From the UHGV virus genome UHGV-0348865: DNA of 64,000 nt; one strand, given 5' to 3'. Within the stretch, counting starts at the first letter, position 1. Each line of letters opens with the position of its first letter. A program made the position numbers and the translations under genes. Of this stretch, positions 12,776 through 50,046 are shown one piece after another. The notes below the pieces were generated by a model. It saw nothing but the letters and a program-made list of their open reading frames with translations, had not been told where the DNA came from and made no database searches. Source of the DNA: a virus.

Positions 12776-13807
12776 TTATAGTCCAGCAAAAACCTTAGCT
12801 GCATTTATTACAGGAACTGATAAATTAACTACAGTATCAGCTCCTAGGTCGTAATTTTGATCCCATTGAAATAGATATCTTCCATAACCAGTTCCTATGC
12901 TAGAACCACTCATTGTGTGAGATCTCATTTGCTGATACCTCCATCCACTGCCTTGGCCTTTTATCGCACCTATTCCAGAGGTAAGAGGTATCATAGGGTA
13001 TGACATTCCAGTGTTACCACCTCCTGAGCCTATAAAAGTATCCACAGTGAAAGGTGTTCTATTAGTAGAGAAGACACATTGCGTGGTACCCGGAGAGTAA
13101 ATATTCAAACCTCCATTATGTTCCGGAACTCCTGCTCCATTGCAGAATACTGCAATTCTAGCAAACACAGAACCACCCTCATTAGTGTTGCCGTTTATGT
13201 AAGGTCTGTTCTGATAAACACGAATAACCCTGTCATCAGAAGTATAAGATAGTCCTATCCCTCCATCAGACCAATTAGCAAACACAACAGCATTGGTCAT
13301 ATTGAACCCACCGATATTTGGTATCTGAAGGGCATTGTTTATGGTCCCCTGCCAAGCCCAAATACATTGACCGACGACCCCACTATCAGATATCGAGAAG
13401 TAGTCTGCTGTATTAGAAAAGGTAATTCCGTAATTCCTATCCGCTCTAGGCCATATTTGATATACGTTGAACCCACAGTCAAATAAGGGGTTACTGCCGG
13501 GGTTCTGATTCAGAGTAACTCTAAAAGAGGAACTGTTTTCTACGTAGATATTATTCACACAATAAACATCAGGAACTAGGTTAGGAGGGACTTCCCATTG
13601 CCAGCATAAAGAACCGGTGGGAACAATAACTATCTGACCACTGCCATCCCATCCACTAATAGGGAAAGATCTCCCAGCTCCATTAAAGTTAAAACTCCCT
13701 CTTATACTATTCTTGAACTGAGGGAAAGTACTTCCGCTATCAATAAATAAGGGAGCGGGGGTTGCTGGCCCCGGCCCTACTGGTTGTGTCCATATTCCAT
13801 ATGCCAT
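12776..13807 (-). CDS. virion structural protein (function unknown)
   Basis: 343-aa Gly/Asn/Ser/Thr-rich ORF inside the tail gene block. Confidence 0.4.
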   Translation of the reverse strand: MAYGIWTQPVGPGPATPAPLFIDSGSTFPQFKNSIRGSFNFNGAGRSFPISGWDGSGQIVIVPTGSLCWQWEVPPNLVPDVYCVNNIYVENSSSFRVTLNQNPGSNPLFDCGFNVYQIWPRADRNYGITFSNTADYFSISDSGVVGQCIWAWQGTINNALQIPNIGGFNMTNAVVFANWSDGGIGLSYTSDDRVIRVYQNRPYINGNTNEGGSVFARIAVFCNGAGVPEHNGGLNIYSPGTTQCVFSTNRTPFTVDTFIGSGGGNTGMSYPMIPLTSGIGAIKGQGSGWRYQQMRSHTMSGSSIGTGYGRYLFQWDQNYDLGADTVVNLSVPVINAAKVFAGL

Positions 13808-13808
13808 A

Positions 13809-14777
13809 TTACCAACTCCCTATCCTGATTCTAAGAGCACCACTTCCATCATAGAAGTCTATTCTGTTACCATTCATCCACAACTGCGCTCCACCTGTAC
13901 CACCCATAACAAAGTCACCACCAACAGTAAGTCTCCAGTTAGAACCCCACATAGAACCAGCAGTAATCTTATCCGCTGACAAGTTCTGAATCTGGGCGTT
14001 GGAGATGGATACGTTATCAATCTGTGCCCATTGGATTCTAGCGTTAGCAATCTGAGCTGTTGTGATATTGACATTCTTTATATCAGCGAATTCCATCCTA
14101 GCTCGCCCACCCTCAAATACGAAGGGAGTATTCCCAGAGCTGCCATCACCAACAATAAATTTGTTAGCTGTTACTTGGAATTGACTGTTTGTTCCGTTGT
14201 TAGTTAACTTGACCCCAGCATATCTTCCGTTGACTGTAGAGTTAACACCCCACGTAGCTTCATACTCAGAGAGTTTCATATACTGAGAAAGGCTTCCGTT
14301 GATATTTTGCAGTTCTGTCTGAACAAGAGCAATCTCTTGACCTTGATCGTTAACAATACCTTCTACTGTCTGAATCTTAGTTGTGTTACCTTCGATGCTA
14401 GTCTTAAAACCAGATACAGTGCTTTCCAGCTTCACAGGAGGTTGAACAGAATTATCCCAAATATCCTCAGTGGACAGGTTCCCCATCTGGGTTTGGATAT
14501 CTGCAATAGCTGTTTCTATCTCTGTAGTAATTCTATTCTCAAGCCCATCAAATTGTAGATTCATTGCATTAAGAGCTTTAATACGAACATCAATCTCTTC
14601 GTGAATTTCATCTATAGCTTGGAACATTTGGTTAGTAGCTGTACTGACTTTTTGTAATTCATCATACACGGCTACGTTATATGTTTCTGTGTCCTGTACA
14701 TTATTGAGAAACCCAACGTTGTACGGGAGTGTGGTGTTGTTACGACCTGTATTCTTTCTAAATCCTCCAGCACCCAT
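13809..14777 (-). CDS. tail fibre/spike-like structural protein
   Basis: Start placed at the internal Met (MGAGG) with AGGAGG RBS; C-terminal repetitive segment ARIQWAQIDNVSISNAQIQNLSADKITAGS resembles fibre repeats. Confidence 0.5.
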   Translation of the reverse strand: MGAGGFRKNTGRNNTTLPYNVGFLNNVQDTETYNVAVYDELQKVSTATNQMFQAIDEIHEEIDVRIKALNAMNLQFDGLENRITTEIETAIADIQTQMGNLSTEDIWDNSVQPPVKLESTVSGFKTSIEGNTTKIQTVEGIVNDQGQEIALVQTELQNINGSLSQYMKLSEYEATWGVNSTVNGRYAGVKLTNNGTNSQFQVTANKFIVGDGSSGNTPFVFEGGRARMEFADIKNVNITTAQIANARIQWAQIDNVSISNAQIQNLSADKITAGSMWGSNWRLTVGGDFVMGGTGGAQLWMNGNRIDFYDGSGALRIRIGSW

Positions 14778-14807
14778 TCCATAATCCCTCCTTGCTAGAT
14801 AATCTAA

Positions 14808-14836
14808 AAACAATAAAAGGGGCACGAAGCCCCTTG
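14808..14836 (-). terminator. intra-operon hairpin with U-tract (possible attenuator)
   Basis: On the minus strand AAGGGGC-TTCGT-GCCCCTT followed by TTATTGTTTTT, between the Big_2 gene stop and the next gene's RBS. Confidence 0.4.
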
Positions 14837-18682: not shown

Positions 18683-19174
18683 TTAATATTTACCTTCGGT
18701 GTAAAGATCAGCTTCTGCAACCCTTCTATTATGAAGACCCTGACTTCTCTGCTTCTCTCCCTTGACCGTTATTTTATCCCAACGAAGAAATTCGGAATAT
18801 ACATCCCCTTTAACTTCTCCATTGATAACCTTCCTTAACTTAGATGTGCTCAAAGCACCACTGCCAACATTGAAGTTGAAAGAAGTGAGTGCATCAAACT
18901 CATGAACTAGTAAAGGAACCTTTATGTTCTTTTGAGTAGCACGAACAGAGTCTTGTGTGTCTCTATCTAGCAGAGCTAGACAATCCTCTATAGAATACGT
19001 TAATCCTTGTCTAACCGGATAACCATTCATATCGCGCGTAGCCCCTACACATATAGTCCATATACCTGCGGAATCTTTATAAGCCTTGGTTCTCATACCC
19101 TCATGCTTCATGATGAATTCCATTCCAGCTGGGCTTAAGTTTAGTTGTACAGGTAGCAATGCGGCGTTATCCAT
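18683..19174 (-). CDS. phage lysozyme (muramidase, T4-lysozyme-like fold)
   Basis: N-terminal catalytic block FIMKHEGMRTKAYKDSAGIWTICVGAT of phage lysozymes; 163 aa. Confidence 0.8.
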   Translation of the reverse strand: MDNAALLPVQLNLSPAGMEFIMKHEGMRTKAYKDSAGIWTICVGATRDMNGYPVRQGLTYSIEDCLALLDRDTQDSVRATQKNIKVPLLVHEFDALTSFNFNVGSGALSTSKLRKVINGEVKGDVYSEFLRWDKITVKGEKQRSQGLHNRRVAEADLYTEGKY

Positions 19175-19203
19175 TCCTAACCTCCTTTTGTAGTCCCTTT
19201 AAA

Positions 19204-19422
19204 TTAAGGTAGTATCTTTCTCAGAGCGTTAGATTCAGCATCAGGGCAAATAACAACTAAGTTATTTTGAATTGTTCTCTGCTTGCATTGAGAGCTAAGC
19301 TTCTCTACTGGAGCAGGGACAGTTACTAATGGATGAACTGCGCTTACAGGAACTGCGGTTGATACCACAACGCCTGCAACTAAACAGATTAAACCATATG
19401 CAGCCTGTTTCATCATTTTCAT
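19204..19422 (-). CDS. small membrane protein, possible holin/spanin-type lysis factor
   Basis: 72 aa with one N-terminal transmembrane segment (AAYGLICLVAGVVVSTAV) and a Cys-containing periplasmic tail; immediately upstream of the lysozyme. Confidence 0.35.
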   Translation of the reverse strand: MKMMKQAAYGLICLVAGVVVSTAVPVSAVHPLVTVPAPVEKLSSQCKQRTIQNNLVVICPDAESNALRKILP

Positions 19423-31241: not shown

Positions 31242-32783
31242 TTAGTAACTCTGATTCCATCTGCTTACGTTTGCCTCATACAAAGAAGCACTTCCGTAGC
31301 TAACGTCATGCTTAGAGCGACCACGATGTGTAACAGAGCACGCTGAATAGCGCATTGCATCCATTAAGTCATCATGTTCTTTAATAATCTTACCAACCTT
31401 ACGGTGATATCTAGCTTTCTCTTCAAATAGCTTAGCGTTAGCGGCTGTGTTAAAGATTTTAAAGCGTCCACTCATCATTCTTTCTCGGATATCCGTGATT
31501 CCCGGTTCTACAAAGAAGTTCTTTTTACCATCCATTCCAATTTTGTTGTAGAAGGTCTCACTCTGTACGTTAACTCCTGCATTCTTATAGAATTGAGCAA
31601 CAGATGAACCACTACCTTTCTCAATATTGTCCGCATCGTGCGGTAGGATGACAGGAATCCACTGACCACGACCATTAATAGCTGGAGCATGATACACTGG
31701 AGTAAAGCCACCTTCTTTATATGAGTCGTAAACATAGATAGTATCCGTGTTTGCATCGTAAGCTGTCCAAACAGCAGCAGTTGGGTGATCAATACCAATA
31801 TCAATTGCACAGACACGTTTCCACGTATCAGGAATTTCGAATGGTTCACATTTAATTGTGTCATCCGATACATCATAAATCAAACCACTTCCTAACAATG
31901 GCATACCTTTCGAACGCATCTCTAACTGCCACGCTGGAATACCTTCAGTCATATCTTTTATATCTTGGTCAGTGATATGTCCACCTAGGTCTGCATGAGC
32001 ATCCCACCAAGAAGCATTCTGGAAATATAGAGAACCTGTGTTCTCATCCCCTTCACCTTTCATAAATTTATCTACCAGTTCAGTTAAACCGTTCTCTGGT
32101 GTAGCTGTAATTGTAACTAGACCTTTAGTTGTGAGTGTACGTGTGACGCACTGTGCGAATATAGCCATAGACTCGTATGGATCTTCTTCGTCTAACCAAA
32201 TGTAGTCAACTGTTGCACCCATCAATGTGTGTTCACCCTGTTGGGTTGAACGGAATTCTAATGTACTTAAACCGTCAAACTCTCCTCTTTCGTTTTGATG
32301 TTTGATTTGTACGATTTGAAGTTTGTTACCATCTCGCTCTATCGTGTCAATGACGATAGCATCACGAGGAATGACACCTGTCCCCAATAAGTTTGTATCC
32401 TTTCCGATAGGCGTACCAAACAATTCCTTTTGCAACACTTTCCTTGTGGAATCCCCTGTAATACCAACTGCCCATGCTAAGATAGGTCTTTTAAATTTAT
32501 ATCCTGTCCACCAAGTTGGGTAGCGACCTGTGACATGACAAGCAAACTCGTATGCCTCGCTGTAAGATTTACCAACACGGTTCGCTGCACACAAGAATCT
32601 AAAGCGATGCTTCAATCCTGCTGCATAAAATTTCTTTTGGAAGTCATACGCCTTGAAAGACAAAATCTTATTATACTTCCTCCATTGGTCACGCTCTTTC
32701 AACATATTCAATAGTGCTTTCTTTTCCTCTACACTAAGGTTGTTACCAGTTAGAGCTTCATAAATTTGTTTATCTAATGACAT
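31242..32783 (-). CDS. terminase large subunit
   Basis: ATPase P-loop FLCAANRVGKSYSEAYE, a WLDEED Walker B-like motif and a C-terminal nuclease region (IDIGIDHPTAAVW); GGAGGA RBS. Confidence 0.9.
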   Translation of the reverse strand: MSLDKQIYEALTGNNLSVEEKKALLNMLKERDQWRKYNKILSFKAYDFQKKFYAAGLKHRFRFLCAANRVGKSYSEAYEFACHVTGRYPTWWTGYKFKRPILAWAVGITGDSTRKVLQKELFGTPIGKDTNLLGTGVIPRDAIVIDTIERDGNKLQIVQIKHQNERGEFDGLSTLEFRSTQQGEHTLMGATVDYIWLDEEDPYESMAIFAQCVTRTLTTKGLVTITATPENGLTELVDKFMKGEGDENTGSLYFQNASWWDAHADLGGHITDQDIKDMTEGIPAWQLEMRSKGMPLLGSGLIYDVSDDTIKCEPFEIPDTWKRVCAIDIGIDHPTAAVWTAYDANTDTIYVYDSYKEGGFTPVYHAPAINGRGQWIPVILPHDADNIEKGSGSSVAQFYKNAGVNVQSETFYNKIGMDGKKNFFVEPGITDIRERMMSGRFKIFNTAANAKLFEEKARYHRKVGKIIKEHDDLMDAMRYSACSVTHRGRSKHDVSYGSASLYEANVSRWNQSY

Positions 32784-35469: not shown

Positions 35470-35958
35470 ATGGCTAAAGCAATGCAGGTAGTTAATCTGG
35501 CAAGTTATGCACTGATTGCCGCGATCGGTGTTAGTGCACTGGTCACATCTCTTTCTGATAAGGCTATCGCTAGTCCTGCTCCTGCAACTGATGCGGCTAG
35601 TGTCTTCTCTAGTTCCATCAATAAGGGTTGGATGATTTGCAACGGTGCGGATAGTGACACCAATCAAATCGTCTTAAAGGTTAAATTCAGTAACGTTTCC
35701 CGTGATGGTCTGGTCGTTAGTACCAAAACACTAGATAATCAGGGCAATGAAGATTTGCTATTGAAGCGTACTGATAACGATCCCGAACTAGTTACCTTCG
35801 GCACTGTACAACGTTACAGTCATGCGAAAGCTGTCACGAATCTGGTCAGTTATGGCCCGATGAACGAATCAATGCTTGCTACCACGGTTTACAATAACGA
35901 AGATAATGCGGTTTATACCGTACACATCAATTTGGCTAACTGTATCGGTGCTAAATAA
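35470..35958 (+). CDS. secreted/periplasmic early protein with N-terminal signal peptide
   Basis: AAGGAATAA RBS; hydrophobic N-terminus VVNLASYALIAAIGVSALVTSLS followed by a Ser/Thr/Asn-rich mature region. Confidence 0.55.
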   Translation: MAKAMQVVNLASYALIAAIGVSALVTSLSDKAIASPAPATDAASVFSSSINKGWMICNGADSDTNQIVLKVKFSNVSRDGLVVSTKTLDNQGNEDLLLKRTDNDPELVTFGTVQRYSHAKAVTNLVSYGPMNESMLATTVYNNEDNAVYTVHINLANCIGAK

Positions 35959-36437: not shown

Positions 36438-36803
36438 ATGTGGTTTATTAAATTCGTCGTTAAAACGGTTGTAGGCTTCTTTCTGGTTGTTCTCCTGTTA
36501 GGTGTCCTGCTATCGGCTATGGGTAGTGTAAAGGCTGCAACGTTCTCCCCTGCTACGGTTGACGGTTTACAGTGCACCTATTTGATTGAGAATTATGACA
36601 CTGGTAAACAGTCACCTAAAGTTATTATTTTGCATGTAAATGATTTCGATCATGTGCAATCATTTGATAAAACTATTCAACTGATGAATGAGTCCACTGG
36701 CAAACAAGTCATGATTGATCATCTGATGCGCTCATCCCTAACCTTGTTTGATGAGTCTATGAATGAAGTTGCATCCGGTAACGGTCAATGTGTAAATCCA
36801 TAG
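36438..36803 (+). CDS. membrane-anchored early protein
   Basis: N-terminal transmembrane helix FIKFVVKTVVGFFLVVLLLGVLLSAMG; start at the ATG after AAAGG (track start is TTG at 36432). Confidence 0.5.
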   Translation: MWFIKFVVKTVVGFFLVVLLLGVLLSAMGSVKAATFSPATVDGLQCTYLIENYDTGKQSPKVIILHVNDFDHVQSFDKTIQLMNESTGKQVMIDHLMRSSLTLFDESMNEVASGNGQCVNP

Positions 36804-42005: not shown

Positions 42006-42302
42006 ATGACTTTAGAAGTATATAAATTCCTTTTTGTAAGCTGTTTAACTATCAGCGTTATAGGATTTATTGTTCTCAGAAACAAAGCAGCAAGCTGGGA
42101 GAGAATGTATAAATCCCTAGTCCGAGTGGATGAGATGTATAATGAGAAAGTTAAAGTAACTCTTAACGATCTTATTATGCAAGTTGAAGACAGAAACAAG
42201 CGTCTTCAGAACCTCAATCATGAAGTGTTGCGCCTTGCTCGTGCTAATGAAGACTTACGAGTGGCTATTGCTAAGCAGCAGGAGATTAACAGTGAAAGTT
42301 AA
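42006..42302 (+). CDS. membrane-anchored coiled-coil protein
   Basis: N-terminal transmembrane segment FLFVSCLTISVIGFIVL followed by a helical, heptad-like region. Confidence 0.5.
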   Translation: MTLEVYKFLFVSCLTISVIGFIVLRNKAASWERMYKSLVRVDEMYNEKVKVTLNDLIMQVEDRNKRLQNLNHEVLRLARANEDLRVAIAKQQEINSES

Positions 42303-43989: not shown

Positions 43990-44166
43990 ATGTCTAAGCA
44001 AACAATCAAACATACTCAAGCTGGTTACTCTTATGTCAACTCCCCTTGCTGCGGTGCTCGTATTAGTCTGGTTAAGGAAGAGGTTCGTATCGTTCAGCGT
44101 GGCGCTACTGTTGTTCGTGCATGCTGTGTATGTGGTAATGATATTTTCATTAAAGGTAAAGTATGA
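43990..44166 (+). CDS. small zinc-ribbon protein (58 aa)
   Basis: AAGAGGAAG RBS; two Cys pairs (SPCCG ... CCVCG); stop overlaps the next ATG; below the track cutoff. Confidence 0.45.
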   Translation: MSKQTIKHTQAGYSYVNSPCCGARISLVKEEVRIVQRGATVVRACCVCGNDIFIKGKV

Positions 44167-44387
44167 TTATCGTTCGCTCTGAGCCTAAAGATAACACTTT
44201 TGGCAGCCTCCGTAATGGTGATGTGTTCTCTCTAGAGATAGACGGGGATACAAAACCTCCTTTATATATGAAGGTTATGCACAGACATGCTATCTGTATA
44301 AATAACCCTGAAACAAGATTTACATTTGATAGAAGTTGTCCTGTCAGATTTTATCAAGCTACCCTAAACGTCAGGAGAGTAGGATGA
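44163..44387 (+). CDS. small paralogous early protein family member
   Basis: LRNGDVFSL ... family N-terminal pattern. Confidence 0.5.
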   Translation: MIIVRSEPKDNTFGSLRNGDVFSLEIDGDTKPPLYMKVMHRHAICINNPETRFTFDRSCPVRFYQATLNVRRVG

Positions 44388-44635
44388 AAAACTTCCAAGC
44401 TGCACCAATCACTAAAGTGATCGAAGTTGACGGTGTGATGATGACTGTTCCTCTGAATACCCGTCACATTGCGATTGATAAGATGGGATATGTGTGGGCT
44501 TGGAAGATTAAGCCCTCTTACAATGAACTCTTTGATGAGTTTGTTTGCACTGGCACATATAGCCCTACGTTCTTGGGTATCTTTGAAGATTTCAAAGGCA
44601 AGCCTAAGATTATCACACTCCCTGCATGTGCTTGA
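44384..44635 (+). CDS. hypothetical small protein
   Basis: Start at internal Met (MKNFQ) with AGGAG upstream. Confidence 0.4.
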   Translation: MKNFQAAPITKVIEVDGVMMTVPLNTRHIAIDKMGYVWAWKIKPSYNELFDEFVCTGTYSPTFLGIFEDFKGKPKIITLPACA

Positions 44636-44642
44636 GGTTGTT

Positions 44643-44897
44643 ATGAAAGTTTCTAAACGCTGGGCAATATTTGGAGAGATTCAAATAGGTGGTGAGATTA
44701 GGAGTGGAAGCTCCCAACTTGTAGCAGTGTTTGACTCTTATCCAACAGAAGAGTTCCTTATGAAGCTTTCTATTCCTGAACCTCGAAAGAAGGATGTAAT
44801 TAAGCGCATTCTGGAAAGGGGTGTAGGTTTCTGGAAAGAGGATTGGTACTCTAAAGGCTATATACTCAGAGAGATTGATTATGTTCAAATGGTTTAA
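44643..44897 (+). CDS. hypothetical small protein
   Basis: Start at internal Met (MKVSKRW) after GAGG. Confidence 0.4.
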   Translation: MKVSKRWAIFGEIQIGGEIRSGSSQLVAVFDSYPTEEFLMKLSIPEPRKKDVIKRILERGVGFWKEDWYSKGYILREIDYVQMV

Positions 44898-45045
44898 ACG
44901 TCTCGTGCATCTGCACGATTGGGTAATCCTTGAAAAATATTCTCTGAGGATTACCGATGATTGTGGCGGGACAAAGCACAAAGGTCTCCGCTATATCATG
45001 CAGTGTAAAGTGTGTGGTAGTATTACCTATCGTGACATTATTTAA
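44881..45045 (+). CDS. small Cys-containing protein (54 aa)
   Basis: Overlaps the upstream stop; CGG ... CKVCG pattern; below the track cutoff; coordinates approximate. Confidence 0.3.
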   Translation: MFKWFKRLVHLHDWVILEKYSLRITDDCGGTKHKGLRYIMQCKVCGSITYRDII

Positions 45046-45078
45046 ATAAATCTGCGCTCTTAGCTCAACGGAGGGGTT

Positions 45079-45507
45079 TTGAAGATAGAGTTAGAATACC
45101 CCTTCGTCAATGACTGGCGATTGGGTTACTTAAGAACAAGTAGAGATGGTAGGAAGCGTGTTGATTTGTACAACTCCGACACGGAAAGGACAACCATTTC
45201 TTACGCAAGATATTTAATGTCTTGTTATGTGGGTAGATACTTAACTTCAGAGGAAGAGGTTGATCATATTGATCAGGACTCAACCAATGATGAGATTTCC
45301 AACTTACAGATTCTAAGTATCAGTGAACATTTAGAGAAGACATTAAAACATAGGGTTAAGGGTGCAGTATCAATCTTGACTTGTGCCAACTGTGGTGTAC
45401 TTTTCGAACGGAGAGAAAATAAAATACACAAAAAGAATCAGAATTATTTTTGTAGCAGATCTTGCAACGGTAAGTATTACTGGAGCAATGGTTTCAATAA
45501 CAAATGA
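45079..45507 (+). CDS. HNH endonuclease (homing-endonuclease-like)
   Basis: HNH core EVDHIDQDSTNDEISNLQIL plus a C-terminal Cys cluster (CANCG ... CSRSC); immediately 5' of the tRNA-like element. Confidence 0.6.
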   Translation: MKIELEYPFVNDWRLGYLRTSRDGRKRVDLYNSDTERTTISYARYLMSCYVGRYLTSEEEVDHIDQDSTNDEISNLQILSISEHLEKTLKHRVKGAVSILTCANCGVLFERRENKIHKKNQNYFCSRSCNGKYYWSNGFNNK

Positions 45508-45518
45508 GAGTTCTTAAT

Positions 45519-45597
45519 GGGGGTGTACCTCACCCGTCTTCTAAACGGGCGTTAATCGAGTAATTGGAGTATGCAGGTTCGAGTCCTGTCTCCCCCT
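45519..45597 (+). ncRNA. tRNA-like element (non-canonical; anticodon-like hairpin with UCU plus T-arm)
   Basis: Hairpin CCCGT-CTTCTAA-ACGGG (7-nt loop, U33/A37-like positions, UCU centre); T-arm GCAGG-TTCGAGT-CCTGT; GGGGG...CCCCC closing helix. Spacing does not fit a standard cloverleaf. Confidence 0.3.
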
Positions 45598-45620
45598 CTA
45601 AGAACTCTTGGAGAATGTTT

Positions 45621-45944
45621 ATGTTTAAAAAAGTATTATTACTATGTACTCTCTCACTAAGCCCTCTGGTTATGTCAGCTGATTTGAATTTCCTAGATGG
45701 GTCTTCCTCTTATTTAAAAAGAGAGAGAGGTTTGGTTAACAGTAGAACTCCTGATGAGGGATATTTTGTTGGATATACAACCTCCACTACACGAAATATT
45801 GCTAATTGTAGCTCATCGGGAACCTTAAACAAAGTTGTGTGGGAGGTTGTTGCTTTATACATTGAACAGCATCCTGAGAGACGTCATCTAAGCAATGATG
45901 ATCTTATCATAGAGGCTGTAAACAACGCTTGGTGTAATAAATAA
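45621..45944 (+). CDS. secreted protein with cleavable signal peptide
   Basis: Start at the ATG after GGAGA; signal peptide MFKKVLLLCTLSLSPLVMSA followed by a polar mature domain. Confidence 0.55.
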   Translation: MFKKVLLLCTLSLSPLVMSADLNFLDGSSSYLKRERGLVNSRTPDEGYFVGYTTSTTRNIANCSSSGTLNKVVWEVVALYIEQHPERRHLSNDDLIIEAVNNAWCNK

Positions 45945-45960
45945 ACCATAGGAGGTGCTT

Positions 45961-46242
45961 ATGAGTTGGGGTGGTGTAATATCCTTAATCTGTATCTTCC
46001 TTGTCTGTGTGGCCCTTACAGGCTGCGTACAGAGCCGTCCTGATGGATGGTGTGCATTATCTGTTGAAGGTGTGTGCGTATCTCGTTGGCATAAGGGTGA
46101 GAAGGTTCCTTCTGGTGAAATTGATATGCGTTACAGTGGTATCTCATGCCTGAATGGTGCAGCAGTAGATGAGGAGACTAAAACCTTGTCAGATGCGCAG
46201 TGGTGTGGTGGCTCTGTAACAACAACCGGTAAGGAGTGGTAA
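45961..46242 (+). CDS. putative lipoprotein (lipobox LTGC), Cys-rich
   Basis: AGGAGG RBS; N-terminal hydrophobic segment ending in ALTGC; several further Cys in the mature part. Confidence 0.55.
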   Translation: MSWGGVISLICIFLVCVALTGCVQSRPDGWCALSVEGVCVSRWHKGEKVPSGEIDMRYSGISCLNGAAVDEETKTLSDAQWCGGSVTTTGKEW

Positions 46243-46243
46243 C

Positions 46244-46492
46244 ATGACAGCTCATTATTGGAATACAAAGAAGCTCCTTGAAGAGATGGCTGGAGTTAGT
46301 AAGTTCCAGTTAAATTCCATGCTTCGAATGGATGCTCGCTCTTTACGCTTCCAAGTAAAGATTGGTAACTTCAGCGATGGCCTTTACTACACACTGAAGG
46401 AAAGGATTAAGAAGACTCACTTCATCATATATGGACTCAAACCGAGAACATATGTTAACTACATGTATTGGGATACATGCTACGATAATTGA
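46244..46492 (+). CDS. hypothetical small protein
   Basis: 82-aa ORF; contains a CGCTCTTT copy. Confidence 0.4.
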   Translation: MTAHYWNTKKLLEEMAGVSKFQLNSMLRMDARSLRFQVKIGNFSDGLYYTLKERIKKTHFIIYGLKPRTYVNYMYWDTCYDN

Positions 46493-46499
46493 GGTTATT

Positions 46500-46721
46500 A
46501 TGAAACTAGACTCTAAGCAGTCACTTAAAACCGTTGAGCTGTCCACGCTGCCAAACGGAAGTATTTTTGGTCATGATAAACACTTCTGGATTAAAACAGA
46601 CATCATAAACGATGGATATATCACCTGTGTCAATCTTTGGAACGGCTCAGTGGATGGTTATCGCCCTAGCACAAAGGTGGTCCCTCAGCCTGATGCTAAG
46701 GCTGTAGGTTTAGTTTACTAA
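46500..46721 (+). CDS. small paralogous early protein family member
   Basis: Start at internal Met after GAGG; LPNGSIFGH ... CVNLWNGSV pattern. Confidence 0.5.
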   Translation: MKLDSKQSLKTVELSTLPNGSIFGHDKHFWIKTDIINDGYITCVNLWNGSVDGYRPSTKVVPQPDAKAVGLVY

Positions 46722-46730
46722 GGAGTTCAT

Positions 46731-46904
46731 ATGAGCTGTTATGGTGGCGGTGAAGTATACGATGACGATGATATGGAATCTAACGATACATGCCCTGATT
46801 GTGGGTGCGAAACATTTGATGGAGTGTCAGTATATCCTACCTGTAGTTATTCACCAGTGATCTGTAAAACATGTGGAGATCAACCTTGTGATGAGTCTTG
46901 TTAG
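46731..46904 (+). CDS. small acidic Cys-rich protein (57 aa)
   Basis: AAGGAG RBS; Cys pairs CPDCGC ... CKTCGDQPC; below the track cutoff. Confidence 0.4.
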   Translation: MSCYGGGEVYDDDDMESNDTCPDCGCETFDGVSVYPTCSYSPVICKTCGDQPCDESC

Positions 46905-47133
46905 TGTGTTAATAGCCTATCTGATAGGATCAGTAGTATCAGGTGTTCTGATTAAGATTATAGATGTTAAAGGAAATCAGTGTTTCCGAGATTGGGATGG
47001 TGAGCCAGACCTCGGAAAGATAGCAGCTATGGTTTTCTTGTGGCCTATTATTGCTGTACTATTTATAGCACTCGTAGCATGGGCTGCTCTTTGGGATTTC
47101 ATCCTTCCTAACAAAAAGTATGAGGACTCATGA
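46891..47133 (+). CDS. small membrane protein (two predicted TM segments)
   Basis: Hydrophobic stretches LVSVLIAYLIGSVVSGVLI and MVFLWPIIAVLFIALVAWAAL; start ambiguous (GTG 46873 or ATG 46891). Confidence 0.45.
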   Translation: MSLVSVLIAYLIGSVVSGVLIKIIDVKGNQCFRDWDGEPDLGKIAAMVFLWPIIAVLFIALVAWAALWDFILPNKKYEDS

Positions 47134-47734
47134 CTAAAGAATTTTTAGAGTGGTTTGGTGATACCTTCAAAGAGTATCTATTCTCTCCAGAAGACTTTGA
47201 AGAACTGAAAACCTACACTTGGTTGGCTTGGAGAGATAGCCGACGAGAGATGAATAAGTAATATCGTGAAGGATTCTTACGAGAGTCCTTTGAGATAGGA
47301 CTTCAGATCTCCTATCAAACTAACATTCATGTAACTAGCCCATAAGGGCGTTACCCTTTAATAACCCAGCCCACTAAGGGGGCGGGAGTTTAGTGCTGGA
47401 TTAGCATAACGCTTATTCCTACAAAGGCAACCGATTGTTAGATCTTACATGCAATATTAATTAATAGGATATGGGAGGGTTCGTCCCCTCCCCCTATTTA
47501 TAAATTATCAGGAGAGTGCATTAGCTGATTAGCTGTAGAAGGGAGGCCGATACTACAGTGTGGCCCAGAGCTAGTGTACTCTCCTGATGAGGCACCTCCT
47601 CATCGTGGTAAGCTGTGGAATGATCTTTACAGTAGTTACTTGAAGTAGCCTGTACGGCCCTCAGCAAAGAGTCCGGACGATATCTGAGTGACTTTAAAAA
47701 CAGATGGAGCCAGGTGGAATCCCTGGCAATTAAT

Positions 47735-47878
47735 TACAGGTATAGCTTATGTGACCCAGTAATGCAGAGTCTACGGTAAAGCAGTCGCCCGTGGTCGAAT
47801 GACCGTATGCCCATTGGATGCATTCCTTTGGTGATGGCTAGGGAGTCCGAGCGTAGGTTCGAATCCTACACCTGTAAT
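47735..47878 (+). ncRNA. structured RNA-like element with tRNA-type T-arm and 8-bp closing helix
   Basis: 3' end GTAGG-TTCGAAT-CCTAC immediately followed by ACCTGTAA, complementary to TTACAGGT about 140 nt upstream; too long for a plain tRNA. Confidence 0.3.
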
Positions 47879-47908
47879 CAAATTGAATAATATCTAATTG
47901 GAGGATGT

Positions 47909-48220
47909 ATGAAAGCACGAAGAACTATATGGACTCCGATGCAGATTGAAAATCTTCGGAGACTAATCAAAGAGTACTCGGTTCAAGAAGTTGCTCAGAT
48001 CATGAATGTAACGGAGAATGCCGTTAACACAGCTTGCACTAAGTTTGGTATATCAAGAGCTTCAATCCGAGTTAAGTGGTCTAAAGAAGAAGATCAGTTC
48101 CTTATCCGTAATGCTGGGTTCATGCCTATCCAGAGAATGGCTGACATGCTCGGTAGAAGTTATGCTGCTGTGCAGAACAGGGCATGTATGCACCTTAACA
48201 TTAGCCTAAAACTTAAATAG
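47909..48220 (+). CDS. DNA-binding protein with two HTH-like repeats
   Basis: Two internally repeated segments (WTPMQIENLRRL...VAQIMNVTENAV and WSKEEDQFLIRN...MADMLGRSYAAVQNR); GGAGGA RBS. Confidence 0.5.
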   Translation: MKARRTIWTPMQIENLRRLIKEYSVQEVAQIMNVTENAVNTACTKFGISRASIRVKWSKEEDQFLIRNAGFMPIQRMADMLGRSYAAVQNRACMHLNISLKLK

Positions 48221-49790: not shown

Positions 49791-49893
49791 ATTTTAAGAG
49801 CAGGTTATCCACAGATATTGGGTAATATCTTTTTTTGAATTTAAAGCTTGGCTCTTTTCGGAGAGTCCTTTTTTAAATTCAATGAGAGGAAAT

Positions 49894-50046
49894 ATGTCTA
49901 AATTAGATTTAAAACTGCTAGCAGCAGCGGTAGTGATTTGTGCACTAGCACTGGTAACGCAGAGAACATCTGGATTTATTCAGTGTTTCTTTTCTGGGCA
50001 ATCCACTTATCAGTGGGTTATTGACGAGTGTAAACAACAGGAGTAA
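49894..50046 (+). CDS. small membrane/secreted peptide (50 aa)
   Basis: GAGAGGA RBS; hydrophobic LLAAAVVICALALV segment; below the track cutoff. Confidence 0.35.
   Translation: MSKLDLKLLAAAVVICALALVTQRTSGFIQCFFSGQSTYQWVIDECKQQE

Follow-up and report, generated by a model that had tools for sequence, protein, structure and literature searches.

The stretch analysed here, 64,000 nucleotides (nt) of the virus genome UHGV-0348865 (the window), carries two adjacent + strand open reading frames (ORFs) whose products are predicted to act in the cell envelope. ORF-A (45621-45944; 107 amino acids, aa) encodes an exported protein of the Rap1a/Tai4a family, while ORF-B (45961-46242; 93 aa) encodes an outer-membrane lipoprotein of the Rtp45 family (PF24052). 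Both are genuine genes under purifying selection with good ribosome-binding sites, and each is an ordinary member of a catalogued family. Judged from their sequences, the two probably provide independent, early, envelope-directed functions of a kuravirus, with ORF-B acting as a plug of LptD, which would also be the cognate receptor of the phage, and ORF-A conferring Rap1a-type protection of the cell wall. The initial annotation had proposed both products as candidate superinfection-exclusion or receptor-masking factors; the exclusion idea appears to gain its strongest support from a feature that this annotation did not contain, a homologue of LptD-type receptor-binding proteins (RBPs) encoded at 12776-13807.

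A megablast search with positions 45000-47000 retrieved 81 phage records, all of them phiEco32-like podoviruses of E. coli or Shigella (Kuravirus, Gordonclarkvirinae) and all with a query coverage below 80%; the window is that of a phiEco32-like podovirus (Kuravirus).

Signal peptides and lipoboxes were called by our own motif rules only. Since these rules fire on 14 (signal peptide) and 3 (lipobox) of the 211 ATG-initiated ORFs of the window (shadow ORFs included), the motifs alone are weak evidence, not beyond chance. They become convincing in ORF-A and ORF-B because of the homology to families known to be exported, the retention of the motifs in every homologue and the low ratio of nonsynonymous to synonymous substitution rates (dN/dS), which is 0.13-0.16 for ORF-A (over 13% protein divergence) and 0.05 for ORF-B. 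Thus, the cleavable signal peptide initially described for the first protein, and the LTGC lipobox with several further cysteines described for the second, both hold. ORF-A is preceded by GGAG (45610-45613), 7 nt before its ATG at 45621, and begins with MFKK, VLLLCTLSLSPLV and MSA/D (the slash marking the predicted cleavage site). In this N-terminus, whose net charge is +2, an uncharged hydrophobic core precedes small residues at -1; it constitutes a predicted Sec signal peptide (residues 1-20; nt 45621-45680, + strand) of the kind that characterises the Rap1a/Tai4a family; its cleavage position aligns with AHA/D, AHA/E and VRA/E sites in family members, every one of which carries an N-terminal signal. 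ORF-B is preceded by AGGAGG (45950-45955), 5 nt before its ATG, and has a hydrophobic core (KD 3.5-3.6) followed by the lipobox LTGC (L19-T20-G21-C22; nt 46015-46026, + strand), whose Cys22 is predicted to be acylated. T20, G21 and C22 are invariant in 11 homologues. As in Rtp45-type lipoproteins, the lipobox cysteine is not followed by Asp; the residue at +2 is Val, which predicts sorting to the outer membrane.

The Rtp45-family lipoprotein and a receptor-binding-protein homologue

The assignment of ORF-B to the Rtp45 family is supported by several searches. The protein matches the Pfam profile PF24052 ('Phage lipoprotein family') over positions 1-80 of 80 with 124.1 bits (cutoff 27), Rtp45 itself scoring 128 bits, and it also matches phrog_4281. 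Its single match among all PDB sequences is Rtp45 (9RPS chain D; E=1.1e-15), and tblastn with Rtp45 recovers ORF-B at 42.9% identity over 70 aa (E=4.7e-16). The core RPDGWC...GVC...W..G..VP.GE.D.RY.G is conserved between the two proteins along with the lipobox. In addition to Cys22, the mature protein has four cysteines (C31, C39, C63 and C82), all invariant; the pair C31-C39 aligns with the C30-C38 disulfide of Rtp45, while C63 and C82 form an extra, kuravirus-specific invariant pair in an added C-terminal stretch. By tblastn, the lipoprotein family is present in 385 of 50,697 phage records, comprising ~105 kuraviruses together with Rtp-like phages, Dhillonvirus, Webervirus and related small siphophages. 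Neither ORF-A nor ORF-B has a match in NCBIfam or PADLOC.

Phage Rtp has Rtp45 as its superinfection-exclusion lipoprotein (Dunbar et al., PNAS 2025, PMC12685063). In the solved complex with LptDE, it occupies the periplasmic outer-membrane interface of LptD, with LptE and LptM on either side, where its residues 30-35 pair with LptD residues 318-323 and the C30-C38 disulfide flanks the strand; the three most N-terminal residues, with the lipid anchor among them, are unresolved in the map (PMC12685063). A hairpin projecting upward in the LptD lumen raises extracellular loop 4 by as much as 20 Å, which prevents binding of the phage receptor-binding protein (PMC12685063). The lipoprotein of phage Oekolampad, which shares 35% identity with Rtp45, is treated as equivalent by the same authors (PMC12685063), and the identity between ORF-B and Rtp45 (~43%) is higher than this.

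Made early, as synteny suggests, ORF-B would by homology be exported, receive its acyl group at Cys22 and be directed to the outer membrane's inner leaflet, where, like Rtp45, it would bind the periplasmic side of the LptD/LptE lipopolysaccharide translocon. A beta-hairpin reaching up the LptD lumen would displace extracellular loop 4, and RBPs of the DUF6453 type could then not dock. The initial annotation had likened the lipoprotein to T5 Llp. In its logic this comparison stands, masking of a receptor by ORF-B from the periplasmic side being well supported by the homology to Rtp45 (E=1e-15); the family and the target differ, and we infer from the same homology that the target is LptD, not FhuA. 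Membership of ORF-B in the Llp or Cor families was rejected: no PDB sequence besides Rtp45 was matched at E<=10 (the presence of an Llp chain in that PDB copy was not verified), and tblastn of T1 Cor against the window gave no match at E<=1.

The most economical reading is that LptD would be the terminal receptor of the kuravirus itself and ORF-B its cognate superinfection-exclusion factor, because the phage carries a DUF6453 protein just after a J-like needle. In this role, ORF-B would shield the infected cell, prevent the loss of progeny to debris and also exclude LptD-dependent siphophages. The DUF6453 protein (12776-13807, - strand; 343 aa) is the orthologue of SU10 gp19 and matches PF20051 with 85 bits (cutoff 25), a profile on which Rtp44, the RBP of Rtp, scores 379 bits. 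A tblastn search of the window with Rtp44 matched 13708-12809 on the - strand (E=3e-10), BLASTP of the predicted protein against Rtp44 gave a nearly full-length alignment (E=2e-12), and the only match in the PDB is RBP-Oekolampad bound to LptDE (9RPT chain C; E=1.2e-9). Immediately upstream lies the gene for the tail needle (13809-14825, - strand), the orthologue of SU10 gp18, with matches to PDB 7Z4B (E=8e-210) and to Phage_Tail_Tip (PF09327; 95 bits). The same domain occupies residues 971-1099 of Rtp43, i.e., the C-terminus of the J-like tip protein encoded just before rtp44, and this C-terminus matches the needle in tblastn (E=0.002).

A Phage_Tail_Tip-domain protein followed by a DUF6453 protein is therefore the gene order common to Rtp and UHGV-0348865, suggesting that only the lipoprotein gene has moved, to the early operon. 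Such a location makes sense because a factor of this kind must act soon after infection. The lipoprotein gene is not beside the RBP gene and downstream of the J-like tip gene, as in the siphophage cassette; the RBP homologue lies 32 kb away, in the tail operon. Kuraviruses would thus carry a complete but split module for LptD recognition and exclusion, with the 12776-13807 protein as the presumed partner of ORF-B. As the cassette of RBP and exclusion lipoprotein can be divided between late and early operons, exclusion genes are not always findable by adjacency. The distribution of the two families is also informative. The DUF6453 family occurs in 302 of the 50,697 phage records, in nearly the same phage groups as the lipoprotein; both are present in every inspected kuravirus record, and the numbers of kuravirus records are similar. 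The FhuA-dependent phage T1, used as a negative control, has neither family, a result consistent with the mapping of one allele per receptor by Maffei et al. (2021).

Several observations weigh against LptD being the receptor of the phage itself. The 12776-13807 protein shares an identity of 22-25% with the siphophage RBPs (22% with Rtp44), at which level the receptor specificity may have shifted. SU10 gp19 is missing from both SU10 virion proteomes, though gp16-18 and gp20-24 were detected; moreover, it is not mentioned in the SU10 structure paper and has no place in the SU10 cryo-EM model. Infection by kuraviruses strictly requires the O-antigen, and lptD-resistant mutants are unreported for them (PMC11990801); their terminal receptor or later-step target is described as open by the extended BASEL paper (PMC11990801), and our literature search found no paper connecting kuraviruses with LptD. 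For ORF-B itself, the AlphaFold 2 (AF2) monomer is an unusable model (pLDDT 49), an outcome which agrees with a published remark that AlphaFold 3 (AF3) mispredicts Rtp45.

In an alternative that is rather unlikely but the best placed of those considered, ORF-B plugs LptD only for cross-exclusion of LptD-dependent siphophages of the Rtp-like or Dhillonvirus type, the kuravirus itself does not use LptD, and the DUF6453 protein is a non-virion or retargeted protein. The absence of gp19 from the virion proteomes and the structure paper fits this explanation, as does the mapping of kuravirus resistance to O-antigen loss. The same holds for the 32 kb between the lipoprotein gene and the RBP-like gene (adjacent in the siphophages) and for the lack of co-variation between the two proteins, since in WFI101126 the lipoprotein is 96% identical to ORF-B but gp19 only 68% to its counterpart here. 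Nevertheless, the joint occurrence of the two families in kuraviruses speaks against it, the RBP-like gene sits exactly at the place of the siphophage RBP gene, behind a Phage_Tail_Tip domain, and a tip protein present at one to three copies is easily overlooked by proteomics. If LptD is indeed a podovirus receptor, the use of this essential and conserved protein extends beyond the small siphophages; furthermore, one would expect cross-exclusion and cross-resistance involving phages of the Rtp and Dhillonvirus types, a matter relevant to the design of phage cocktails.

The Rap1a/Tai4a-family protein and its insertion locus

For ORF-A, an exclusion or receptor-masking role, as initially envisaged, finds no direct support; the family to which it belongs points instead to protection of the cell wall. 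ORF-A matches the Pfam profile 'Rap1a immunity proteins' (PF18602) at 28.5 bits (cutoff 27.7). An exhaustive phmmer search of 1.8 billion representatives returned only 15 relatives, and the ten that were scanned all match PF18602 with 45-73 bits. Although phmmer with ORF-A alone finds nothing in the PDB, a profile of its relatives matches Tai4 of Agrobacterium (6IJE/6IJF; E=1e-5) and Rap1a (3ZFI/4BI8; E=2e-3). Two family-invariant cysteines align with the C78-C122 disulfide of Rap1a; in ORF-A these are the conserved Cys63 and Cys105, which are predicted to form a disulfide, and the predicted ORF-A protein shows the structural disulfide and the small helical fold that mark the Rap1a/Tai4a family.

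Rap1a resides in the periplasm after cleavage of a 26-residue signal, and its dimer sterically blocks Ssp1, a DL-endopeptidase of the NlpC/P60 type delivered by type VI secretion (PMC3852654). By analogy, ORF-A would be a periplasmic, disulfide-stabilised helical protein, whose dimer may sterically block the active site of an NlpC/P60-type peptidoglycan DL-endopeptidase entering the periplasm. The likeliest source of such an enzyme would be a Tae4/Ssp1-like type VI effector of neighbouring bacteria, and the infected cell would in this way stay intact up to its lysis by the phage. A role as self-immunity against the phage's own lysin was considered and rejected, since neither of its wall enzymes, a T4-type lysozyme and an SLT transglycosylase, is of the NlpC/P60 type.

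This reading also has evidence against it. The Pfam match is marginal, and no Tae4-type effector was found near ORF-A, the neighbours being an HNH endonuclease gene, a tRNA-like element and the lipoprotein gene; with no effector beside it and with the phage's own wall enzymes not of the NlpC/P60 type, ORF-A is an orphan. Members of PF18602 are often orphans in phage-like and chromosomal contexts, so the Rap1a family may do something besides conferring immunity to type VI secretion systems (T6SSs). Since immunity proteins are highly partner-specific, the target of ORF-A is not readable from its sequence.

A related proposal, which we regard as unlikely, is that ORF-A does not confer T6SS immunity and blocks either a wall hydrolase of superinfecting phages (for example, a lambda gpK-like tail-tip enzyme) or a host endopeptidase such as MepS, thereby acting as a second, post-adsorption layer of exclusion or as a stabiliser of the sacculus. 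The lambda K protein has an NlpC/P60 domain, and Rtp encodes a homologue of it, rtp41. Moreover, two divergent Rap1a alleles stand independently beside the exclusion lipoprotein gene, and the family often occurs as orphans outside any T6SS context, some of them in other phage or phage-like contigs. Nevertheless, no family member is known to inhibit anything except Tae4-type effectors (PMC3852654), and a hot spot of insertion, next to a tRNA gene and homing endonucleases, can explain the adjacency to the lipoprotein gene.

The order of genes at this locus is an HNH endonuclease gene, a tRNA-like element without a full D arm, ORF-A and the lipoprotein gene. The HNH homing endonuclease gene (45079-45507, + strand) matches phrog_14913 (E=3e-53) and, weakly, Pfam HNH_3; its orthologue Bas91_0100 is annotated 'homing endonuclease'. 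It abuts a tRNA-Arg(UCU)-like element (45519-45597, + strand), located immediately upstream of ORF-A, in which the D arm is reduced to 4 nt and the variable region has an insertion of ~20 nt. This element was recovered by Rfam only (RF00005; 33.2 bits against a gathering score of 29), ARAGORN detecting no tRNA in the whole window and RNAalifold recovering no cloverleaf for it. Between its two alleles in kuravirus contigs, the acceptor stem shows two compensatory GC<->AU changes, a pattern suggesting that structural selection still acts on the RNA. A weak hairpin (45596-45613, + strand; 7 pairs, 3 of them GC, then a T-poor tail) overlaps the 3' end of the tRNA-like element and the ribosome-binding site of ORF-A, and is no better than expected from shuffled sequence. 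In phiEco32, a canonical tRNA-Arg directly precedes the lipoprotein gene, and in Bas91 an equally canonical tRNA-Arg lies ~150 bp upstream of it. A different homing endonuclease (NUMOD4+HNH) occupies the same spot in contig L005 (964-1473), indicating that the tRNA/lipoprotein locus is an insertion hot spot.

The distribution of ORF-A is narrow. No match was found by tblastn in 50,697 phage genomes or 72,556 plasmids, nor by blastn in 5,426 E. coli genomes; a word-indexed protein search yielded near-identical copies only, and outside the window ORF-A is restricted to three short metagenomic kuravirus contigs (100%, 96% and 87% identity), each with the copy directly upstream of the lipoprotein gene. 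The nearest other relative, P0013 (40% identity), is a second Rap1a-family allele and likewise resides in metagenomic kuravirus contigs (L013 875-1219, L014 46-393 and L015 91-438). It, too, stands just ahead of the lipoprotein gene, inserted upstream of the tRNA-like element (ORF-A lies downstream of it) and in place of the small-gene block and HNH gene seen in the window and in phage 1-6af. Two divergent Rap1a alleles at two insertion points in one small region imply either selection for function or a very active hot spot. Other phage-borne Rap1a-domain proteins exist and are few: two divergent Rap1a-type probes found 5 of the 50,697 phage records, and a match with a Rap1a domain in BFVD comes from phage vB_EcoP_SP5M. 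We propose that ORF-A, with a GC content of 0.37 as compared to 0.43 for the window, is a recently inserted accessory gene.

Its absence from all of the phage records, its deviating GC content and its flanks (the HNH gene and a degenerate tRNA) would also suit a mere passenger, brought to the tRNA locus by homing-endonuclease activity or recombination and having no role for the phage. Such an origin without function is improbable in view of the dN/dS of 0.13-0.16 over 13% protein divergence, the intact signal peptide and both structural cysteines, the well-spaced ribosome-binding site of its own and the retention of a second allele in another lineage.

The pairing of an exclusion gene with an orphan gene resembling T6SS immunity genes is recurrent. 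A fuller scenario, possible albeit somewhat doubtful when taken as a whole, is that kuraviruses use LptD via a low-copy DUF6453 protein (SU10 gp19) at the needle tip, that they have split the siphophage cassette so as to express the plug early, and that some lineages repeatedly recruit Rap1a-type inhibitors beside the plug gene as a second layer of envelope protection against endopeptidases borne by T6SSs or superinfecting phages. Rap1a-type immunity homologues are very rare in virulent phages, and our literature search found no functional study of one in such a phage. If the proposed role is true, a virulent phage equips its host, for the duration of the latent period, with a defence against interbacterial weapons, and the shielding of the host wall by a phage from T6SS amidases or rival phages would constitute a new type of accessory function.

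Early context and other exported-looking proteins

The late structural genes of the window occupy the - strand up to ~34.9 kb, while the + strand carries early genes, then replication genes, from 35.5 kb. ORF-A and ORF-B are located in the part of the + strand block that matches the early cluster of phiEco32, in which the orthologue of ORF-B is phi32_106, a 'putative phage lipoprotein'. The phi32_106 cluster is classed as early in phiEco32 (PMC8948821, PMC4281155). In SU10, CDS 25-68 were placed in the middle class by the authors, via homology to phiEco32 (PMC4281155, PMC8948821); beyond these, transcription of the early cluster is driven by sigma-70 promoters at the start of the cluster (PMC4281155, PMC8948821). 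The early status of the two genes, as asserted in the initial annotation, is thus suggested by synteny, which is its sole support. A scan of 44000-48000 for promoters and terminators detected fewer promoter-like sites than in shuffled sequences and no convincing terminator, giving no sign of a separate transcription unit.

The early location also bears on the suggestion that ORF-B is an outer-membrane spanin (Rz1-like) or another lysis lipoprotein, for which its small size, outer-membrane lipoprotein nature and periplasmic cysteines could be cited and which is effectively refuted, as ORF-B lies far from the holin/endolysin genes (18683-19422), is not proline-rich and is homologous to Rtp45, whose solved role is different, and as kuraviruses own a separate, overlapping Rz/Rz1 pair. 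In Bas91, outside the window, this pair lies on the - strand (32382-32756 and 32237-32596; lipobox LSAC); the out-of-frame ORF has the signal MRKLNQFFIMSALAMSLSAC, and the record annotates only the Rz part as spanin.

A third early protein had initially been listed as secreted. Encoded by the first gene of the + strand (early) cluster (35470-35958; 162 aa), it does have a hydrophobic N-terminus, with an uncharged segment of 22 residues and a possible AIA/S site; this is compatible with a signal peptide as well as with a membrane anchor, the two being indistinguishable here. The protein belongs to phrog_21410 (function unknown; E=3e-101) and has no match in Pfam, NCBIfam or PADLOC. Hydrophobic, signal-like N-termini are also seen in other small early proteins, none of them with a Pfam family, that are encoded on the + strand at 36438-36803, 42006-42302 and 49882-50046. 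The early region seems to be rich in envelope-directed proteins.

Comparison with known systems

Among characterised proteins, the counterparts of ORF-A are Rap1a (Tai4a) of Serratia marcescens and Tai4 of Agrobacterium tumefaciens (PF18602; 3ZFI, 4BI8, 6IJE), with which it shares an identity of ~20% or less. Unlike these, ORF-A has no adjoining Tae4/Ssp1 effector or T6SS and is carried by a virulent phage; a dimer may be envisaged for it by analogy.

T5 Llp and the Cor proteins of T1, N15 and phi80 share with ORF-B the logic of a small, early, periplasm-facing lipoprotein that would disable an outer-membrane receptor from inside. However, Llp and Cor target FhuA, and ORF-B has no detectable sequence relationship to either. 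The mechanisms also differ: the effect of Llp is one of long-range allostery within a TonB-dependent transporter, that of Rtp45 one of physical loop displacement (PMC12685063).

The 12776-13807 protein shares full-length homology with Rtp44 and RBP-Oekolampad (E=2e-12 and 1e-9, respectively), the same Pfam family and the same place after a Phage_Tail_Tip domain, while its context is a podovirus needle instead of the siphovirus J tip. Likewise, the gene of ORF-B lies in a podovirus early operon, 32 kb from the RBP gene, whereas rtp45 stands back-to-back with its RBP gene, and ORF-B is 17 aa longer than Rtp45 and bears the second invariant cysteine pair (C63, C82). In spite of these differences, Rtp45 is the closest known system: the two lipoproteins have a common Pfam family, lipobox and cysteine pair as well as the RPDGWC and VP.GE.D.RY.G motifs, and the same periplasmic plugging of LptDE is presumed for ORF-B.

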